Source: a virus
Taxonomy: Duplodnaviria > Heunggongvirae > Uroviricota > Caudoviricetes
IMG/VR virus record: IMGVR_UViG_2541047163_000022
Reading direction: 5' to 3' (one strand)
Length of the DNA stretch: 8,081 nucleotides
In this document: piece by piece, positions 1,465 through 8,049 of the stretch
How positions within the stretch are numbered: position 1 is the first letter of the stretch
How the letters are laid out: each line of letters starts with the position of its first letter
Notes under the pieces: generated by a model
Seen by the model: the letters and a program-made list of their open reading frames with translations, nothing else
The model's database searches: none
What the model was told of the DNA's origin: nothing
Position numbers and translations under genes: made by a program

Positions 1465-1883
1465 TTCTCAATCTCTCGATGGCGCAGTGCAGCAGATGCC
1501 AGTTGTTCAAGCTAGCACGCAAATTGTAAACCAGAATGCCAGGAAAAAACAAAACCCGCCGAAGCTGGTTGTGTGCGGTTGCGTTGAAGTCTCCTAGCCA
1601 AAGAGTAGCGGTGACCACTCCCCGCCGATAATCTTAGTTGTTTAATTTCGTAAGCTAACTAGGCTAAAAGCTCTCTGTTGTCTGCCTGTTGTACAATTAA
1701 CAAAATGAACAACGAACTAGATATACCAACGCCAGAATGGTGCAACAAATCCCAAACAACACAGCAATGCAACAATAACATATGTTATTTTCCTCTCACG
1801 GGATTCAGTCCTGAATTCTCATAAAGCTAATCTTTTTTTAAAAACATACTGTTAGATCACATGCACTTTCTTTCTTAACATCG

Positions 1884-1911
1884 TTGACTTCGCATGCGAA
1901 GCGTTTAAAAT
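1884..1911 (+). promoter_or_regulatory. Sigma70-type promoter for the GHKL operon, with an embedded 14-bp perfect palindrome (candidate operator)
   Basis: TTGACT at 1884-1889, 16-nt spacer, TAAAAT at 1906-1911; predicted start about 1918, about 45 nt before the ATG at 1964. The perfect palindrome CTTCGCATGCGAAG at 1888-1901 spans the -35/spacer junction. Confidence 0.45.
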
Positions 1912-1963
1912 CAACAATTTGCACTTAAGGTATTTATTTTCCCAAACACATAGAGAGTAAATT

Positions 1964-3355
1964 ATGACTGAGAACACGACTCCAACAGCAGACTTTAGTC
2001 CTAGTAAAAGATTTTTTGTAAGTATGCTAACTCGAGATATCGACTTAAACGATGCCATACTTGATCTGCTTGATAACTGCGTCGATGGGGCTTTACGTAC
2101 AATAAAAGACACAAAAAAAACTTCAAAACCATATGAAGGATTTTATGCGAAACTTACGATTAATAAAGATGTCTTTATTATAGAAGACAATTGCGGAGGT
2201 ATCCCTAAAAGCTTCCGAGAATATGCTTTTAAAATGGGACGACCCCATCAAAAAGAAGAAGAAAATGAAGGCACCGTTGGCGTCTATGGTATTGGTATGA
2301 AAAGAGCCATTTTTAAAATGGGTAGAGATTGCTCAATACAATCGAATAATCCCGATGGCGCATTCACTGTAGATATAACACCTGATTGGATCGATGGTGA
2401 TGGTTGGAAAATACCGATGCACGAGAGTGACTATGATAACAAAAATCCAACAGGCACAACTATAGAGATAAAAAAACTCCATTCTAATGTGGCACAAAAA
2501 TTTAATGAGAGCACATATCTTACTGATCTCTTTTTACAGATAAAACACTCATTGTCATTTATTATTCAAAAAGGATTTAAAATAGAATTAAATGGAGTTG
2601 TTGTTGAACATAATCCGATTAACATCATAACTGATCATTCTAAAATAGAACCATACATATATAAAGCTAAAATAGACGATGTTGATATCGATTTAGTTGT
2701 TGGCTTCTATAAAAATTTAGAAGATGACAATGATGATGTTTTAGAAAAAAGGAGTTCTGATGATGCTGGATGGACTGTCATTTGCAATGACCGCGTTGTT
2801 CTATATTGTGATAAGACACATCTCACAGGTTGGGGCTTTGCTAATGTACCAAGGTTTCATACCCAATTTATAGCAATTTCTGGGGTTGTTCGCTTTACCA
2901 GTAAAAACCCAGAAAAATTACCAATAACAACAACGAAACGAGGTGTCGATCTTAGTTCTACATTGTACAATGATGTACGAAATAAAATGATTGAAGGGAT
3001 GATGCATTTTATTCGATTCACCAATCAGTGGAAAGGTGAGCATCTTGAAGAAGGGAAAAAATTACTTAAGTCAGCTCAGTCACATGAAGCTCAATCTTTA
3101 TTTGAAATTACCCCACAATCAACTCCAGAAGATAAAAAAAATAACTGGTCCAACCCTAATAGAAACAAAAATGAGTGGCGATATACACCTAAGCTGCCTA
3201 CCCCAGTAAAAAAAAGCTCTACTGTACGAATAATCTTCACCAGAGAGAAAGAAGATGTTAAAATTTTATCTAAATATTTCTTTGGACATGAAGATGCTAG
3301 CGCTTCTGATGTGGGGATGCAATGCTTTGATACGGTGATTGAAGAGGTGAAGTGA
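1964..3355 (+). CDS. GHKL-superfamily (Bergerat-fold) ATPase with N-terminal ATPase domain, MORC/MutL/GyrB-like arrangement; function in this context unknown
   Basis: 463 aa. Motif I D34-LLD-N38-CVDGA (E/DxxxNxxD N-box; codons checked at 2063-2092). Motif II IEDNCGGIP at residues 74-81 (compare GyrB-type DNGRGIP). Motif III G106-VY-G109-I-G111 (GxxGxG). ATG at 1964 preceded by an AGAGAG weak Shine-Dalgarno. Low GC. The stop TGA at 3353-3355 overlaps the next gene's start. Confidence 0.85.
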   Translation: MTENTTPTADFSPSKRFFVSMLTRDIDLNDAILDLLDNCVDGALRTIKDTKKTSKPYEGFYAKLTINKDVFIIEDNCGGIPKSFREYAFKMGRPHQKEEENEGTVGVYGIGMKRAIFKMGRDCSIQSNNPDGAFTVDITPDWIDGDGWKIPMHESDYDNKNPTGTTIEIKKLHSNVAQKFNESTYLTDLFLQIKHSLSFIIQKGFKIELNGVVVEHNPINIITDHSKIEPYIYKAKIDDVDIDLVVGFYKNLEDDNDDVLEKRSSDDAGWTVICNDRVVLYCDKTHLTGWGFANVPRFHTQFIAISGVVRFTSKNPEKLPITTTKRGVDLSSTLYNDVRNKMIEGMMHFIRFTNQWKGEHLEEGKKLLKSAQSHEAQSLFEITPQSTPEDKKNNWSNPNRNKNEWRYTPKLPTPVKKSSTVRIIFTREKEDVKILSKYFFGHEDASASDVGMQCFDTVIEEVK

Positions 3356-4344
3356 TGTCTGGACAATACATTCCCTATCACTTAAGGCATAATAAGTCTA
3401 TTGATAGAGAGATTTTTCTCGAAAGCCTAAACCTCTTAAGCAAAAGACTAAATATTCAAGAATATACATATATAGGTTTTGGTGGTCCGATGCTTGAAGA
3501 TTTTAGAATCATGCATAATCGTATCGCTCTTTCTGATATGATTTCTCTCGAAGAACAAGAGTCTACTCACATCAGACAAAAATATAATTTGCCTTATAAT
3601 TGTATTGATTGTAAGCTAATATCAGCTCATGACTTTATTCTTGATTATAGTTTTTCTAAACCATCAATAACATGGTTAGACTATGCCTCCCCGAAAAAAA
3701 TACAAACGGATCTAGATGATATACACTTACTAAGTACTAAAGTAAGCTCTTTTGATATTTTGAAGGTCACCTTCCCCATAAATCCTAGTTCTTATTACCA
3801 ACGTAGAGTTGGAGAAAGTTTAGATATTTTTAAAGAAGCTTTTATTAATTCATTAAAATCATTGCTTGGGAAAAAGTATCTTGATTTTAATCTTCAGATA
3901 TCAAATGCAGATCTTTCAGATCGTAAGATTAAAGCTCTTTTAATACGAATTATTACAAACGCTTTTAGATCAGCAATAGAACGTGGTCTTTCAGGACGTA
4001 AGGATAAGATTCAGTATTACCCATTATCCTTAAATCAATATAATGATGGCAGTCATACCATGTTGACAATATCAGGTTTTTTCTCCTCAGAACAAGAATA
4101 TATAGAGTTATCTAAGGCATGCGACCTTTCTAACTGGCAATTTTATTCAACAAATTGGGAAGACGTGCAAGAAATAGCAATACCAACACTAACAATTAAA
4201 GAAAAGATAAATTTAGATAGTAAACTGCCTGATAAAGAAGCATATCAGGCAGCCGCTGAAGAGTTCTCTTTAAACGAAAATGAACGGGATAACTATTATA
4301 AATACTATAGGTTATACCCTAACTTCCAAAGAATTATGGTTTAA
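3352..4344 (+). CDS. Hypothetical protein, translationally coupled partner of the GHKL ATPase; no recognisable catalytic motif (candidate effector or specificity subunit)
   Basis: 330-aa ORF. GTG at 3352 and ATG at 3355 both overlap the upstream stop (GTGATG); GAGGTGA Shine-Dalgarno at 3343-3349 favours the ATG at 3355. I found no PD-(D/E)xK, HNH, HEPN or Walker motif by eye. Same low GC as the upstream gene. Confidence 0.7.
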   Translation: MMSGQYIPYHLRHNKSIDREIFLESLNLLSKRLNIQEYTYIGFGGPMLEDFRIMHNRIALSDMISLEEQESTHIRQKYNLPYNCIDCKLISAHDFILDYSFSKPSITWLDYASPKKIQTDLDDIHLLSTKVSSFDILKVTFPINPSSYYQRRVGESLDIFKEAFINSLKSLLGKKYLDFNLQISNADLSDRKIKALLIRIITNAFRSAIERGLSGRKDKIQYYPLSLNQYNDGSHTMLTISGFFSSEQEYIELSKACDLSNWQFYSTNWEDVQEIAIPTLTIKEKINLDSKLPDKEAYQAAAEEFSLNENERDNYYKYYRLYPNFQRIMV

Positions 4345-5463
4345 ATATTCGGGCTGTACTCTTTTATTTAATAAATTGTACAGCCCCTTTAATATATATT
4401 CAGCAACTATTGGTGACACGCTATTTCCTATTTGTCTGAAACTATGCCATTTAGTTACATGAAAGCGAAACCAATCAGGGAAGCCTTGTAATCTAGCAGC
4501 TTCTCTTGGTGTAATCACTCTTGGATGATAAGGGTGGATCGGCCTGACGGCTTGAAAGCTTCCTTTATCTCTAGCGGTTCCCGCCCTTAAAGTCGGGCAA
4601 AAACCATTTGGATCTAATCTTGTAGATCTTGAAATTTTATCAGTTTCCCCAAAAGATAAGGAAGCATAACGCTCTTGGACGATTTTGCTATGTAATGTTC
4701 CGGTACATCCAGATATGATATTATTTTTTAACTTAGCGATCGATTCTGTATCACCAACATTCCGAGGGATCTGCCCCCATAATTTTTCATAAAATCCCCC
4801 TTTTCGATCTTTTTTAATTGTTCGCCAACTCTCAGAGTCTGATTGCCAATTGGCATCGATAATATCTGGTAATCCATACAAAGCATCTTTTACAGTAACC
4901 GGATCAATCATTTTAGGCATAAATACTTCATCTGAAATATCAAGCTTCAATGATTTTTTTACACCGATAAAAAAATATCTAGTTCGAATAGTTGGAGCAC
5001 CATAATCAGATGCTTTTACCTTGATGGGATCAAGAATATCATAATCACCGCTAACCAAATTAAATGCTTTATTTCTAATGCCAGAATATTTCTCTTGCAT
5101 AATACCTGGAACATTTTCTGCCAAAAAGAATAATGGCTGTAATTCTGATACTAAACGGTAGAAATGCATGTAAAGCTGATTCCTGCTATCATCAGGATTC
5201 CCCTTGCCTATTGAACTAAATCCTTGGCACGGAGGACCGCCAATAATACCATCTATGGGCATATCGTTTTTAAAAAAACCCTTAATTATTTCTGCATTTA
5301 GTAAAGAAACATCTTCTTGGACGTGCAAACTTCTTGGAAAATTAATTGCGTGAGTATTAATAGCATGTTGATCAATTTCAACTGCCATTTTAACATCAAA
5401 TCCAGCACGTGCAGCACCAAGACTTAGACCTCCAACGCCAGAAAACAAATCTATTACATTCAT
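4312..5463 (-). CDS. DNA (cytosine-5)-methyltransferase (Dcm/M.HhaI-type C5-MTase), full length, non-permuted
   Basis: 383 aa. Motif I FSGVGG (residues 7-12); motif IV GGPPCQGFS with catalytic Cys79 (TGC, rc of gca at 5227-5229); motif VI FFLAENVPG (E116-N117-V118); motif VIII-like PTIRTRYFFIGV; motif IX REAARLQGFPDWFRF; motif X GNSVSPIVAEYI. Variable region between VIII and IX about 150 aa. ATG at 5463. Confidence 0.92.
   Translation of the reverse strand: MNVIDLFSGVGGLSLGAARAGFDVKMAVEIDQHAINTHAINFPRSLHVQEDVSLLNAEIIKGFFKNDMPIDGIIGGPPCQGFSSIGKGNPDDSRNQLYMHFYRLVSELQPLFFLAENVPGIMQEKYSGIRNKAFNLVSGDYDILDPIKVKASDYGAPTIRTRYFFIGVKKSLKLDISDEVFMPKMIDPVTVKDALYGLPDIIDANWQSDSESWRTIKKDRKGGFYEKLWGQIPRNVGDTESIAKLKNNIISGCTGTLHSKIVQERYASLSFGETDKISRSTRLDPNGFCPTLRAGTARDKGSFQAVRPIHPYHPRVITPREAARLQGFPDWFRFHVTKWHSFRQIGNSVSPIVAEYILKGLYNLLNKRVQPEYLNHNSLEVRV
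4351..4386 (+). terminator. Stem-loop immediately 3' of the GHKL operon (possible terminator or RNA-stability element), embedded in the 3' coding end of the convergent methyltransferase
   Basis: GGGCTGTAC (4351-4359) and GTACAGCCC (4378-4386) form a 9-bp perfect inverted repeat around an 18-nt AT-rich loop, followed by CCCTTTAATATATATT. It begins 7 nt after the TAA at 4342-4344. The loop is long for a canonical intrinsic terminator. Confidence 0.3.
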
Positions 5464-5495
5464 ATAGTTGCAACGTCTCTTATTAGTTTCTATGT

Positions 5496-5525
5496 ATTAT
5501 AACACAACTGTTCTTGATGTTTTAA
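5496..5525 (-). promoter_or_regulatory. Sigma70-type promoter with extended -10 for the methyltransferase
   Basis: - strand reads TTAAAA (5525-5520), 18-nt spacer, TGTTATAAT (5504-5496), i.e. TGn plus a consensus TATAAT. Predicted start about 5489, about 26 nt before the ATG at 5463. Confidence 0.45.
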
Positions 5526-5725
5526 CCCCATAAGATAACCTCATAAAGGCTATCCCTTGAAAATACCGGATCGCATAAATTTAATCTTTCAAAACTACTT
5601 GTCTATTAATCGAGCAATTTAAGGTTGTTTTAGTCATGTCGATACCGACATAGTTAACTAAACCCATTTCATCGTCCAACAAATGGGGGTAATACACTTT
5701 GATTTATAGTCGGGTGGGTTTTTCT

Positions 5726-5761
5726 CTATCTGCCTTTGGTGTTCATGCCCAAGGCAGATAG
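5726..5761. repeat. Near-perfect 12-13 bp inverted repeat (hairpin or protein-binding palindrome) near the right edge of the islet
   Basis: Left arm TATCTGCCTTTGG at 5727-5739, right arm CCAAGGCAGATA at 5749-5760, 9-nt loop, one bulged T, plus a closing C5726-G5761 pair. No U-run follows on either strand, so it is not a canonical intrinsic terminator. Confidence 0.5.
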
Positions 5762-5814
5762 CCTCAAGCACCCGCAGCAATTCTACTTAACTATCCTTTT
5801 CCCGCAAATCGTTT

Positions 5815-5898
5815 TTATCCCCAGCGGCAAATCGAATACACCACCAGCGCCACCGCCATCGCAATTCCTACCGTTGTGAATGCTTCAGGCCAGGTCAT
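5815..5898 (-). CDS. Possible small hydrophobic peptide (27 aa) coupled to the upstream DUF551-like gene; alternatively the remnant of a gene truncated by the islet insertion
   Basis: Hand translation of the - strand gives MTWPEAFTTVGIAMAVALVVYSICRWG then TAA. Its ATG (5898..5896) overlaps the upstream TGA (5897..5895) as ATGA. Backbone-like GC. Too short for the ORF track. Confidence 0.2.
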   Translation of the reverse strand: MTWPEAFTTVGIAMAVALVVYSICRWG

Positions 5899-6452
5899 TG
5901 ATTCACCTCCTGCGGCGGTTCTGGTAGCGACATCCAGTGGGTTGCTTGCCTAAGATCATTACCCGGACTAACTGCTATACCTCCGCGCCGGAACGTGCCT
6001 CCGAGATAGCGTGCGGAATATATTAATGGCCCAGCCTCGCTATCGATATTCATCGAAATAAGCACGTTCTGGCTCTTTTCAGGCATTCGCTCAGTACAGC
6101 TTATCCAGCCATCCAGAGTTATCGGAGATCTGGTTGACGTTTCCGAGATTTCCCGAAAATTGTTGGTTGACGAATTCTTATTTTCCCGAAAGTTTCCGGC
6201 CTGAAGCATGGCGACGCGGCAGGCGTTCCAGCCATCAGCATATGTTTTAGTTACACCGTCGAGATGGCAGGTAAGCAAATCCATTTCATCAGGCACTACC
6301 ATTGCTATCGGCTCTGCTTCCAGTGATGCCAGCGCGATACGAAACACATTAGCCAGCAGGCTGTCTGAAGACTTGTTATCGTGCGCCGAGTCGCTCAGGA
6401 AGCCTGTGATGTATGATTTAATCTCCGCGCGTTCTCTGGTAATAGTGCTCAT
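5895..6452 (-). CDS. Prophage protein with a C-terminal DUF551-like domain (family recalled from the ...HWMSLPEPP C-terminal motif)
   Basis: 185-aa ORF; ATG at 6452 with AAGGAAAA about 8 nt upstream; C-terminus ...ATHWMSLPEPPQEVNQ. Contains an in-frame 33-bp imperfect tandem duplication (peptides NFRENKNSSTN / NFREISETSTR). Confidence 0.7.
   Translation of the reverse strand: MSTITRERAEIKSYITGFLSDSAHDNKSSDSLLANVFRIALASLEAEPIAMVVPDEMDLLTCHLDGVTKTYADGWNACRVAMLQAGNFRENKNSSTNNFREISETSTRSPITLDGWISCTERMPEKSQNVLISMNIDSEAGPLIYSARYLGGTFRRGGIAVSPGNDLRQATHWMSLPEPPQEVNQ
6131..6196. repeat. Two imperfect 33-bp tandem copies inside the DUF551-like coding sequence (in-frame 11-codon duplication)
   Basis: TGGTTGACG occurs at 6131-6139 and 6164-6172; TTTCCCGAAA occurs at 6150-6159 and 6182-6191. 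Both pairs are 32-33 nt apart; roughly 70-75% identity between copies by hand alignment. Confidence 0.5.
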
Positions 6453-6453
6453 A

Positions 6454-6672
6454 TCAGTTTTCCTTATACGGATTAATTTTATTGTGCAGTGCGCTGAATG
6501 ATTCCCATGTCACATCGGTATATAGCTCAATAACTGGTTCAAATGTCCTTCCAATTATCCAGACCAGTAATAGCGGGGATATCGGTATCATCAACACTAT
6601 AAACAGAATGAAAAACAGAAACTCTGTTGTTCTGCTCTTTCGTGGGTAATTTTTTTCTAAATAATGTTTCAT
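6454..6672 (-). CDS. Small hypothetical membrane protein (one predicted transmembrane helix)
   Basis: 72-aa ORF with hydrophobic stretch FLFFILFIVLMIPISPLLLVWIIG. Its stop (6456..6454) lies 1 nt before the DUF551-like ATG (6452). Shine-Dalgarno weak; a GC hairpin sits in its 5' leader. Confidence 0.5.
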   Translation of the reverse strand: MKHYLEKNYPRKSRTTEFLFFILFIVLMIPISPLLLVWIIGRTFEPVIELYTDVTWESFSALHNKINPYKEN

Positions 6673-6799: not shown

Positions 6800-7111
6800 T
6801 TATGCTTCAGCCTTATTTCGCAACCAGACACAAACCGGGCCATCTTCCGTATCATGAATGGAACCAATAAACCAGCCATCGCCCTCTGGTCGTTCCGGTT
6901 CCCATGCAGAAATATCAGCATCACACGCATCAAGGTCAGCACATCCTTCATCTCTGAAGCAGAGGACGTATTGAAGATTATTTTCCTCCATCCAGGCGTT
7001 AAACTCTTCCGTTGAAATATATTCCCGACCATCACAGAATTTTTCATATTCAGGATGTGTCCAGTAGCCATATCCGTCACGAACTACCGGCATTTCTTTA
7101 ATTTCACTCAC
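6800..7111 (-). CDS. Highly acidic, Cys-rich small phage protein (about 25 Asp/Glu versus 8 Lys/Arg in 103 aa by hand count); function unknown
   Basis: The ORF starts with GTG at 7111..7109 (the track displays M), preceded by a strong AGGAGG about 7 nt upstream (rc of 7112-7125). It overlaps the upstream gene's stop by 8 nt. Confidence 0.65.
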   Translation of the reverse strand: MSEIKEMPVVRDGYGYWTHPEYEKFCDGREYISTEEFNAWMEENNLQYVLCFRDEGCADLDACDADISAWEPERPEGDGWFIGSIHDTEDGPVCVWLRNKAEA

Positions 7112-7331
7112 TGTTAACCTCCTGCAACGCTACACGATACGCCTTCTTTATCCACGCCTTACTGCCATATAATTTCGTCTTCATAATAAACACACCTGCA
7201 CGACTCGCCGATATCCCCGGACAGGTTAACAGCACAGCATCCACCACACGGTTATGCTTCCGAAACTCCATTACAGTACTGCTGATAACCACCTGCCCCA
7301 CCGGGCCGTAATCCTGATACAGGATTTTCAC
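7104..7331 (-). CDS. Hypothetical small phage protein
   Basis: 75-aa ORF with a GTG start at 7331..7329 overlapping the upstream stop (GTGA), and AGGAGGG about 9 nt upstream. Part of the coupled - strand chain. Confidence 0.55.
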   Translation of the reverse strand: MKILYQDYGPVGQVVISSTVMEFRKHNRVVDAVLLTCPGISASRAGVFIMKTKLYGSKAWIKKAYRVALQEVNSE

Positions 7332-7609
7332 GCAGACACCCTCCTGTCGAAATAAACGTAGTTATTCACTATGCGCAGCGGCATGCCTAATTTTCTGGCA
7401 ATTTCCCTTCTTTGCATGCCTCTCTGATGCAGTTGCCGCGCCAGCTCAATATCACGCTGAGAATATTTTGCCGACGGGTGAAAATCACCACGTAACATCA
7501 TGCTGATGCCCAGCTCCCGTGCCTTCGTTCTCACTGCCGCTTCAGTTCGTCCGATAAGTGCGCCAACGCTTTTTACCTTCATCGTTCCCGCACACTGCCG
7601 GAGTATCAT
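7328..7609 (-). CDS. Hypothetical phage protein with helix-turn-helix-like basic segments (possible DNA-binding protein); start uncertain
   Basis: ORF track gives 7328..7732 (134 aa), but that overlaps the upstream gene by 91 bp. Internal ATGs at 7609 (MILRQ...) and 7582 (MKVKSVGALIGRTEAAVRTKARELGIS...) are more plausible. Segments such as IGRTEAAVRTKARELGIS and RREIARKLGMPLRIV look like HTH elements. Confidence 0.5.
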   Translation of the reverse strand: MILRQCAGTMKVKSVGALIGRTEAAVRTKARELGISMMLRGDFHPSAKYSQRDIELARQLHQRGMQRREIARKLGMPLRIVNNYVYFDRRVSA

Positions 7610-7641
7610 GATTTCCGCCCGGCACCACGTCTTCCACCCAC

Positions 7642-8049
7642 TCACCGCTGCTGTTCTCTGGTGGCGGTAATATCCCGGAGAATATCCCGGCACTTGTTCA
7701 GCTCCCGCAGCGCGGCGCAGACTCGCTCCCACTTCTGAACCTGACCTTTTGCCCGGCGCAGCTCGCGGTTAGCCACATGCAGCGATGGTAAAATCAGACC
7801 ATCCGGATGCTTTCTGGTGAACGACGGCTGTGACTGCACTGTGACCGCCACACTTTCCGTTTTTATTTCTTCCTGTGTTTCCGCTTCCCCGACTGGTAAC
7901 GCAACACCTGCTGGCTGAGGAAAGGCTTTACCATCCGTTTCCGTTATGGATGCGGCTTTCGGCTCTGCCGGTAAATCAGCGCCCGGTATGCAGTAACGAA
8001 ATTTACCGCCCTGATTCACGCGAATCAGACGACCTTTGCTGACAGCCAT
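7642..8049 (-). CDS. Hypothetical phage protein (basic, coiled-coil-like C-terminus)
   Basis: 135-aa ORF on the same strand as the rest of the phage chain; backbone-like GC. No obvious Shine-Dalgarno, so it may be coupled to a gene beyond the window edge. Confidence 0.5.

Follow-up and report, generated by a model that had tools for sequence, protein, structure and literature searches.

The stretch of viral DNA analysed here (8,081 nucleotides, Caudoviricetes, IMG/VR virus record IMGVR_UViG_2541047163_000022; hereafter the window) carries a convergent three-gene cassette that, in all eight flank-distinct prophage contexts with unidirectional genes, has its DNA methylase on the strand of the phage genes and its ATPase operon antisense to them. 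By Pfam assignment, the cassette consists of a GHKL ATPase gene (HATPase_c_3, 1964-3355, + strand), a gene encoding a PF20553 'Methyltransf_35' protein (3355-4344, start at 3352 or 3355, + strand), and a C5 DNA methyltransferase gene (PF00145, E = 2.6e-61; 4312-5463, − strand). The methylase and the GHKL-PF20553 unit converge, and their reading frames overlap by 33 bp (4312-4344). We propose, with a probability of about 0.5, that the three genes form a self-contained mobile cassette in which phage early transcription would tilt the methylase-to-effector ratio toward protection.

To compare orientations, more than 100 homologous loci from genomes, IMG/VR contigs, and metagenome assemblies (designated here by L numbers) were grouped by flank similarity (blastn alignments of at least 400 bp), the strands of the flanking open reading frames (ORFs) were scored, and representatives were annotated. 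The eight unidirectional contexts are the E. coli/Klebsiella nin region, the DUF968-type lambdoids (L036/L038 group), the position upstream of DUF1367 in Yersinia (L004/L005), the interval from YbcO/Q-like to lysozyme (L043/L106), and the contexts of L084-86, L040/82, L044/100, and Rouxiella L012. For a count of 8/8, the one-sided binomial test gives p ~0.004, provided that the contexts are independent of one another. In phage contexts at a junction or a prophage end, namely the P2-like group (23 loci), L006 (after umuDC and next to purB), L087, L094, and L011, the methylase-side flank lies on the methylase strand in five of five cases. It lies on the opposite strand in all three convergent cassettes found outside phages (Leptospira L002 and the alpha-proteobacterial metagenome-assembled genomes (MAGs) L017 and L021). 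The P2-like phages carry a 41-44% identical version of the cassette (L070-L093, L107, L111, and L119; e.g., L074 8968-12534), in which replication gene A and a DinI-like gene immediately precede the methylase, at the end of the early operon, and the terminase gene comes after the cassette. In P2 itself, the interval from gene A to the terminase gene holds tin and old. For cassette variants with all genes on a single strand, the question of orientation does not arise.

The 8/8 pattern supports selection on cassette orientation. The methylase-sense state is the one to be expected under the logic of the preliminary description of this DNA, in which phage read-through raises methylase expression and generates antisense RNA against the ATPase operon, provided that the reverse orientation is counter-selected. 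The polarity rule is a modest but new comparative observation; it supports that idea on evolutionary grounds, and the transcriptional mechanism behind it is one we infer from the sequence.

The arrangement that makes such read-through plausible is clear in the window. As first described, all backbone genes and the methylase are on the − strand and the ATPase and PF20553 genes are the sole + strand genes; the ORF listing, Pfam, and the annotation of E. coli O157:H7 EDL933 agree on this. The window comes from a prophage of pathogenic E. coli that is lambdoid and Rac/CP-933R-like, and it represents the nin-type region. Its sequence from 1500 to 5900 is 100% identical to EDL933 and many other chromosomes of Shiga toxin-producing E. 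coli strains (STEC); the EDL933 counterpart is prophage CP-933R at ttcA, in which the same layout is annotated and the entire right arm (cro-like gene, replication genes, Q-like gene, lysis, head, and tail genes) lies on the methylase strand. Lambdoid phages express Q from their early-right transcript. Because the Q-like gene (DUF1133 antiterminator, 24-698, − strand) is downstream of the cassette, this transcript would, by gene order, have to traverse first the methylase in sense and then 2.4 kb of GHKL-PF20553 in antisense before it could reach the Q-like gene. No − strand terminator-like site was found between DUF551 (5894) and the methylase (5463), nor was a − strand promoter-like site found between 1465 and 1963, where the cassette-bearing island gives way to DUF1367. 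Judged from these features, transcription from the early operon would have to pass through the island to get to DUF1367 (865-1464, − strand), YbcO (575-865, − strand), and the Q-like gene.

Each half of the cassette also has a promoter-like site of its own. The best + strand site (TTGACT-16-TAAAAT, 1884-1911) lies 53 nt upstream of the GHKL ATG; the variant L036 (85% identical) retains a TTGACA-n-TAAAAT element, and L006 and Leptospira L002 also have a site with TTGAC. On the − strand, the best site is TTAAAA-18-TG-n-TATAAT (5525-5496), an extended −10 promoter-like element for the methylase. In most unique enteric-type upstream sequences, TGnTAnnAT/TGnTAnACT is found at 30-33 or 40-41 nt from the methylase ATG, and the position of this extended −10 is fixed despite divergence of the sequence around it. 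A caveat on these calls is that the window shows no overall enrichment of promoter-like sites (21 found vs. 18.9 expected). The possibility that the methylase is promoter-less and depends on read-through was rejected in view of the conserved extended −10. Given this positionally conserved element and the detection of the methylase protein in lysogens (see below), the methylase is independent of read-through. The promoter originally proposed for the GHKL pair is matched by the best + strand promoter-like site, but it is not the only one in the cassette; gene order, the lack of intervening − strand sites, and the 8/8 orientation uphold the read-through logic but not a methylase that relies on it.

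In L038/L039, the extended −10 of the methylase is adjoined by a perfect inverted repeat of 13 bp (CATGCTTAAGTTC ... GAACTTAAGCATG), which lies ~35-75 nt upstream of the ATG (12114, − strand). It is a candidate operator and has no equivalent in the window.

A hairpin at 4351-4386 begins 7 nt after the PF20553 stop codon, within the 3′ coding tail of the methylase. Its predicted stability is similar on the two strands (−17.2 kcal/mol, z = −5.4 on the + strand; −17.9 kcal/mol, z = −5.1 on the − strand), and a U-rich tail follows on the + strand only. It probably terminates the GHKL operon and not the − strand transcripts. The last 16 codons of the methylase (codons 368-383, window 4312-4362) overlap the 3′ end of the PF20553 gene and one arm of this hairpin; they fall outside the alignment with PDB entry 3g7u (chain residues 3-369) and extend past the ends of 367-aa homologues. 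This tail looks like a by-product of the gene overlap.

Published data indicate that both halves are active in lysogens. On Sakai arrays, ECs1954 and ECs1955 fall together, 2.6- and 3.2-fold, on leaving exponential growth (PMC2241611), a joint change consistent with an operon that is active in the lysogen. In EDL933, both + strand proteins have been quantified (PMC11125564 S1), and array and proteomic data (PMC2241611, PMC3210124, PMC11125564 S1) show that the pair is expressed in the lysogen, as had been anticipated. The methylase protein was detected in the lysogen (PMC12551062).

Several observations weigh against the proposal. The upstream neighbour of the GHKL pair in the P2-like group does not run antisense to the pair. 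The independence of the eight contexts is approximate, as phages are mosaic, and divergent cassette variants share flanks, indicating swapping at one site. A change in methylase expression on induction had been predicted, but the RNA-seq data from ciprofloxacin-treated EDL933, the sole induction data that turned up, list none of the three cassette genes (0/3) as differentially expressed (PMC11125564 S1). At the protein level, the ATPase was unchanged under ciprofloxacin, and the PF20553 protein (EDL933_RS11265, equivalent to window 3355-4344) was 3.5-fold up at 3 h and 141.6-fold down at 12 h (PMC11125564 S1); the latter value is the extreme of the range of decreases among phage proteins given in that paper's text (PMC11125564). 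However, only one CP-933R gene in that table changed at the transcript level and the CP-933R portal gene is frameshifted, i.e., the prophage is defective, so these data are a weak test of the prediction.

Beyond orientation, the three genes behave as a linked module. In every homologous locus fetched, the GHKL gene is followed by an adjacent PF20553 gene on the same strand, in taxa including enterics, Leptospira, cyanobacteria, Verrucomicrobia, alpha-proteobacteria, and Vibrio. A C5 methylase lies within 2.5 kb in all loci except L008-L010 and L069. In enterics, Leptospira, Rouxiella, and alpha-proteobacteria, it lies downstream in convergent orientation; in Verrucomicrobia, Oleiphilaceae, Cellvibrionaceae, and others, it is upstream and shares the strand of the pair; in Achromobacter, it is upstream but divergent; and in Vibrio, it is downstream on the same strand. 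In many variants, the convergent 3′ ends overlap by 33-40 bp. The genomic settings are diverse: the Leptospira cassette lies beside a Vsr gene and an integrase gene outside any phage, the Vibrio cassette follows a Tn7-type TnsE gene, the Achromobacter cassette abuts a TrwC relaxase gene, and in one prophage a STAND NTPase gene adjoins the cassette. No helicase or endonuclease appeared among the neighbours examined. Because the convergent layout also occurs in non-phage islands (Leptospira, alpha-proteobacteria), it is older than phage carriage. The earlier suggestion that the layout is suited to the phage is favoured by the 8/8 co-orientation but tempered by this older origin of convergence and by relatives that have all three genes on one strand. 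Collectively, these features bear the signature of a mobile immunity or addiction module that resembles restriction-modification systems and belongs to the type predicted in 2008 for paraMORC ATPases (PMC2292703).

Three cyanobacterial MAGs (L008, L009, and L010) carry the GHKL-PF20553 pair without an adjacent DNA methylase, between housekeeping, nonribosomal peptide synthetase, or Tn7-like genes; either an unlinked methylase serves these pairs or the pair is able to act alone. Among the 173 E. coli genomes with the cassette, the sole one without the methylase is O157:H7 F6294 (L120, 6392-6895), in which one deletion removes the methylase together with the 3′ two-thirds of the PF20553 gene and leaves the ATPase intact. 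This loss pattern, a single case, fits an antidote-poison relation. A second, distant GHKL paralogue (HATPase_c_3, ~25% identity) is found beside the cassette in L011 (11766-12791), L013 (12246-13964, 572 aa), and L015 (11159-12151). Further DNA methylases on the backbone strand are encoded in L043 (14086-16155) and L085 (7125-8354 and 15078-16850); they comprise C5 types of 689 and 590 aa and an N6/N4 type.

The methylase matches the PADLOC Type II MTase model (E = 2e-98) and is near-identical to PDB entry 3g7u (E = 1e-254). Its alignment with M.HaeIII and M.HhaI is limited to the catalytic half, so its target sequence is not inferable from them. In the ATPase, Bergerat motifs I-IV (D34xxxN38xxD41, D75NCGG, G106xYGIG, and G164T) are invariant across 23 sequences, the second domain has an invariant TTK, and an S5-fold transducer domain follows the GHKL domain; the protein fits the structural definition of the MORC/paraMORC group. 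The ATPase stop codon and the PF20553 start codon overlap as TGATG, preceded by the Shine-Dalgarno sequence AAGAGG, and the two genes are translationally coupled. The PF20553 protein has the hallmarks of the class-I S-adenosylmethionine (SAM) methyltransferase fold (motif I rich in glycine, an acidic residue following strand 2, and an Asp in motif IV). Because G44 of its IGFGG motif, E67, and W108-L109-D110 are invariant, the protein probably retains SAM binding. Its nearest solved folds are the tRNA/rRNA methylases Trm1, RsmD, RlmI, and RlmJ, at a TM score of 0.42 and 10% identity; the 'O-' of its database name, 'O-methyltransferase', is unsupported, the nearest folds being RNA N-methylases. 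The PF20553 family is large (2216 clusters at 50% identity, E <= 1e-3). Both + strand proteins fall in PHROGs of unknown function, and neither had a match in PADLOC-DB 2.0, NCBIfam, or a PDB sequence search. A nuclease was sought in the ATPase C-terminus and in the second half of the PF20553 protein, and no convincing fold or motif emerged. A full-text literature search for PF20553/Methyltransf_35 or bacterial MORC defence returned no study of the trio, nor any paper in which the PF20553 family is named.

In relation to known systems, the trio shares with Type II restriction-modification a methylase and tight linkage, but a cognate endonuclease fold (PD-(D/E)xK, HNH, GIY-YIG, or PLD) was not found. 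Control of EcoRI by reverse promoters, through transcriptional interference or antisense RNA, has reportedly been described by Kobayashi's laboratory. Like convergent Type II systems, the cassette has a methylase that faces the 'restriction' unit, separate promoters, overlapping 3′ ends, and a need for the methylase to act first in a naive host; unlike them, its restriction side lacks a nuclease fold, and the extra transcription would come from the phage early operon instead of an internal reverse promoter or a C protein. Its composition, own promoter(s), variable presence, site between conserved genes, and expression in the lysogen are those of phage morons such as lambda rexAB, sieB, and bor or the P2 tin/old hotspot. 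In contrast to the usual morons, the trio is bipartite and convergent, so that relative to the phage operon one half is invariably in sense and the other in antisense orientation; this consistent choice of which half is sense is the new point.

The closest parallels come from the paraMORC/MORC ATPases in predicted restriction-modification operons (Iyer, Abhiman, & Aravind, 2008; PMC2292703), with which the trio shares a GHKL+S5 ATPase with intact ATP-binding motifs, a C5 methylase, an occasional Vsr gene, and a sporadic, laterally mobile distribution. It differs from them in lacking a superfamily II helicase or a recognisable endonuclease and in having an invariant SAM-methyltransferase-fold PF20553 partner instead. 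The cassette is best described as an uncharacterised variant of paraMORC-type restriction-modification-like systems. The HEF_HK/Response_reg_2/C5-methylase triads (Bellieny-Rabelo et al., 2021; PMC8011034) likewise join a C5 methylase to a GHKL protein of the HATPase_c_3 type and a small partner protein, as a conserved neighbourhood of three genes attributed to paraMORC-type restriction-modification contexts, but their partner is receiver-like, in place of PF20553, and their GHKL protein has extra HK-like domains. A GHKL ATPase is also present in GHKL-fused Shedu (VcSduA/paraMORC3), which was shown to be anti-phage and in which ATP hydrolysis was proposed to gate the effector (PMC12137116); VcSduA has a PD-(D/E)xK nuclease (DUF4263) at its C-terminus and does not require a methylase, whereas the ATPase of the window has neither a nuclease nor a PADLOC match.

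On the proposal favoured here, the methylase would mark self DNA and a complex of the ATPase and its partner would act on unmarked DNA; with a promoter for each unit, both are made in the lysogen, as the published proteomic and array data show. Lodged in an accessory-gene hotspot of temperate phages, the cassette would have its methylase as the last sense gene of the early transcription unit and its effector operon read backwards by the same transcript. When the early promoter fires, upon infection of an unmethylated host or upon induction, more methylase mRNA would be produced, and head-on transcription and antisense RNA would hold down the effector operon. Such a shift in ratio would protect the replicating phage DNA and the chromosome of a naive host, giving protection a head start, a problem that classical restriction-modification systems solve by C proteins or reverse promoters. 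With the cassette reversed, the effector would be over-expressed and the methylase silenced, and this orientation would be selected against. As to the effector itself, our best guess is that a GHKL dimer clamps or compacts unmodified DNA in an ATP-driven manner and that the partner either modifies the target or recruits a host nuclease. A broader version of this idea, which we offer tentatively and consider somewhat doubtful, is that the trio represents a widespread class of methylation-gated immunity without a dedicated nuclease, in which the ATPase dimer clamps or compacts unmethylated DNA, the partner adds a second, disabling modification or acts as a SAM-dependent switch, and temperate phages have domesticated the system by fixing its polarity, their early transcription raising the protective half and lowering the aggressive one.

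The orientation could instead be a historical accident, whereby the cassette was already convergent when acquired and one or a few ancestral insertions were spread by mosaic recombination, with each unit on its own promoter and the orientation devoid of regulatory meaning. Several of the results above fit such a history: the convergent layout outside phages (L002, L017, and L021), the promoters of both units, the lack of an induction response in EDL933, the at least 99% identity of all 173 E. coli copies, which implies one event, and the sharing of flanks by variants with 34% vs. 85-100% PF20553 identity, which implies cassette swapping at one site. We nonetheless regard it as unlikely, given that the same orientation recurs at sites incompatible with one insertion, i.e., upstream of DUF1367 (the window and L004) and from Q-like to lysozyme (L043), at a prophage end after umuDC (L006), in the P2-like interval from A to terminase (L074 group), and between unrelated flanks (L040, L044, and L085); the 8/8 count, again if the contexts are independent, points the same way. 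It is much less probable that the trio is mainly a post-segregational, toxin-antitoxin-like addiction module that serves to stabilise the prophage and not to defend against other phages, its orientation only preventing phage promoters from over-expressing a toxic pair. Convergent methylase/restriction architecture is typical of selfish restriction-modification units in Kobayashi-type models, the methylase was lost only together with a truncation of PF20553, and the cassette adjoins a remnant of another addiction locus, hok/sok. However, an addiction role does not exclude defence; the hotspot locations of the cassette (the P2 tin/old position; Tn7 cargo; beside a STAND NTPase) fit immunity, and the cyanobacterial pairs without a linked methylase speak against obligate toxicity.

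Two further explanations dissolve the link between the two halves. We consider it highly improbable that the methylase is an independent phage 'orphan' serving anti-restriction and that the GHKL pair next to it is a separate moron unrelated to it. Nin regions commonly carry orphan methylases, the methylase of the cassette has a promoter of its own, and some of the phages with the cassette encode other C5 and N6 methylases, but the trio stays together across phyla, both within and outside phages and in more than one gene arrangement, and the 3′ ends overlap by 33-40 bp in many variants. Nor do we expect the pair to be an RNA- or small-molecule-modifying or regulatory module (e.g., Trm1-like RNA methylation) to which the methylase is only indirectly associated. 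This improbable alternative would account for the tRNA/rRNA methylase folds nearest to PF20553, for the failure to find a nuclease, and for the loci that have the pair without a methylase; against it, the structural similarity is generic (TM 0.42, 10% identity), and a MORC-like ATPase with a near-universal C5 methylase and a Vsr neighbourhood points to DNA.

The cassette lies in a low-GC accessory island (about 1620-5700, delimited by GC content and distribution) between DUF551 and DUF1367. The GC content of the island is 31-38% vs. 45-56% in the backbone, and the island is present as a single copy with at least 99% identity in 173/5426 complete E. coli genomes vs. more than 3300 genomes with matches to the flanking backbone segments. 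A search for direct repeats or att-like sites flanking the island gave repeats at chance level only. With its distinct composition, promoter-like sites of its own, variable presence, and expression in the lysogen, the cassette is supported as a composition-distinct accessory insert (moron) in the nin region, in agreement with the initial proposal. On the methylase side of the island, the ORF listing and Pfam place the remaining backbone genes, all on the − strand, as follows: DUF551 (5895-6452), three small ORFs (6454-6672, 6800-7111, and 7104-7331; ORF listing), a helix-turn-helix protein gene (7328-7732), and DUF1627 (7642-8049).

Homology to other lambdoid phages starts again at 5716, at the island's right junction, and a hok/sok-like region located there (5649-5900, − strand) was recognised by the Rfam sok model and by similarity to phage 933W. 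The sok match scores 50.2 bits, under the gathering score of 59, and no Hok-like ORF was found in this region of the window, so the locus is regarded as a remnant. Positions 5716-5900 are 91% identical to the 933W segment adjoining sokW/mokW/hokW; the addiction locus seems to have been replaced or truncated by the island. The + strand 'terminator-like' sites at 5711-5735 were rejected, as they represent one arm and the loop of a hok/sok-type hairpin. In the same region, a 27-codon hydrophobic ORF (MTWPEAFTTVGIAMAVALVVYSICRWG, 5815-5898, − strand), whose start codon overlaps the DUF551 stop codon (ATGA), has no PHROG match and may encode a small membrane peptide.

Within E. coli, the cassette is a lineage marker in O157:H7 and O111 STEC, and a crystal structure of its methylase exists. 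More broadly, the trio is a common system outside defence catalogues that has no obvious nuclease and resides in lambdoid and P2-like hotspots. If the polarity rule holds, it would represent a design principle for the safe carriage of self-toxic cassettes, in which the antidote is read with the phage and the poison against it. The ATPase is, among solved structures, the closest bacterial structural relative of the eukaryotic MORC silencers, and if the methylation-gated immunity suggested above is true, the trio would be a prokaryotic equivalent of the silencing of foreign DNA by MORC proteins.

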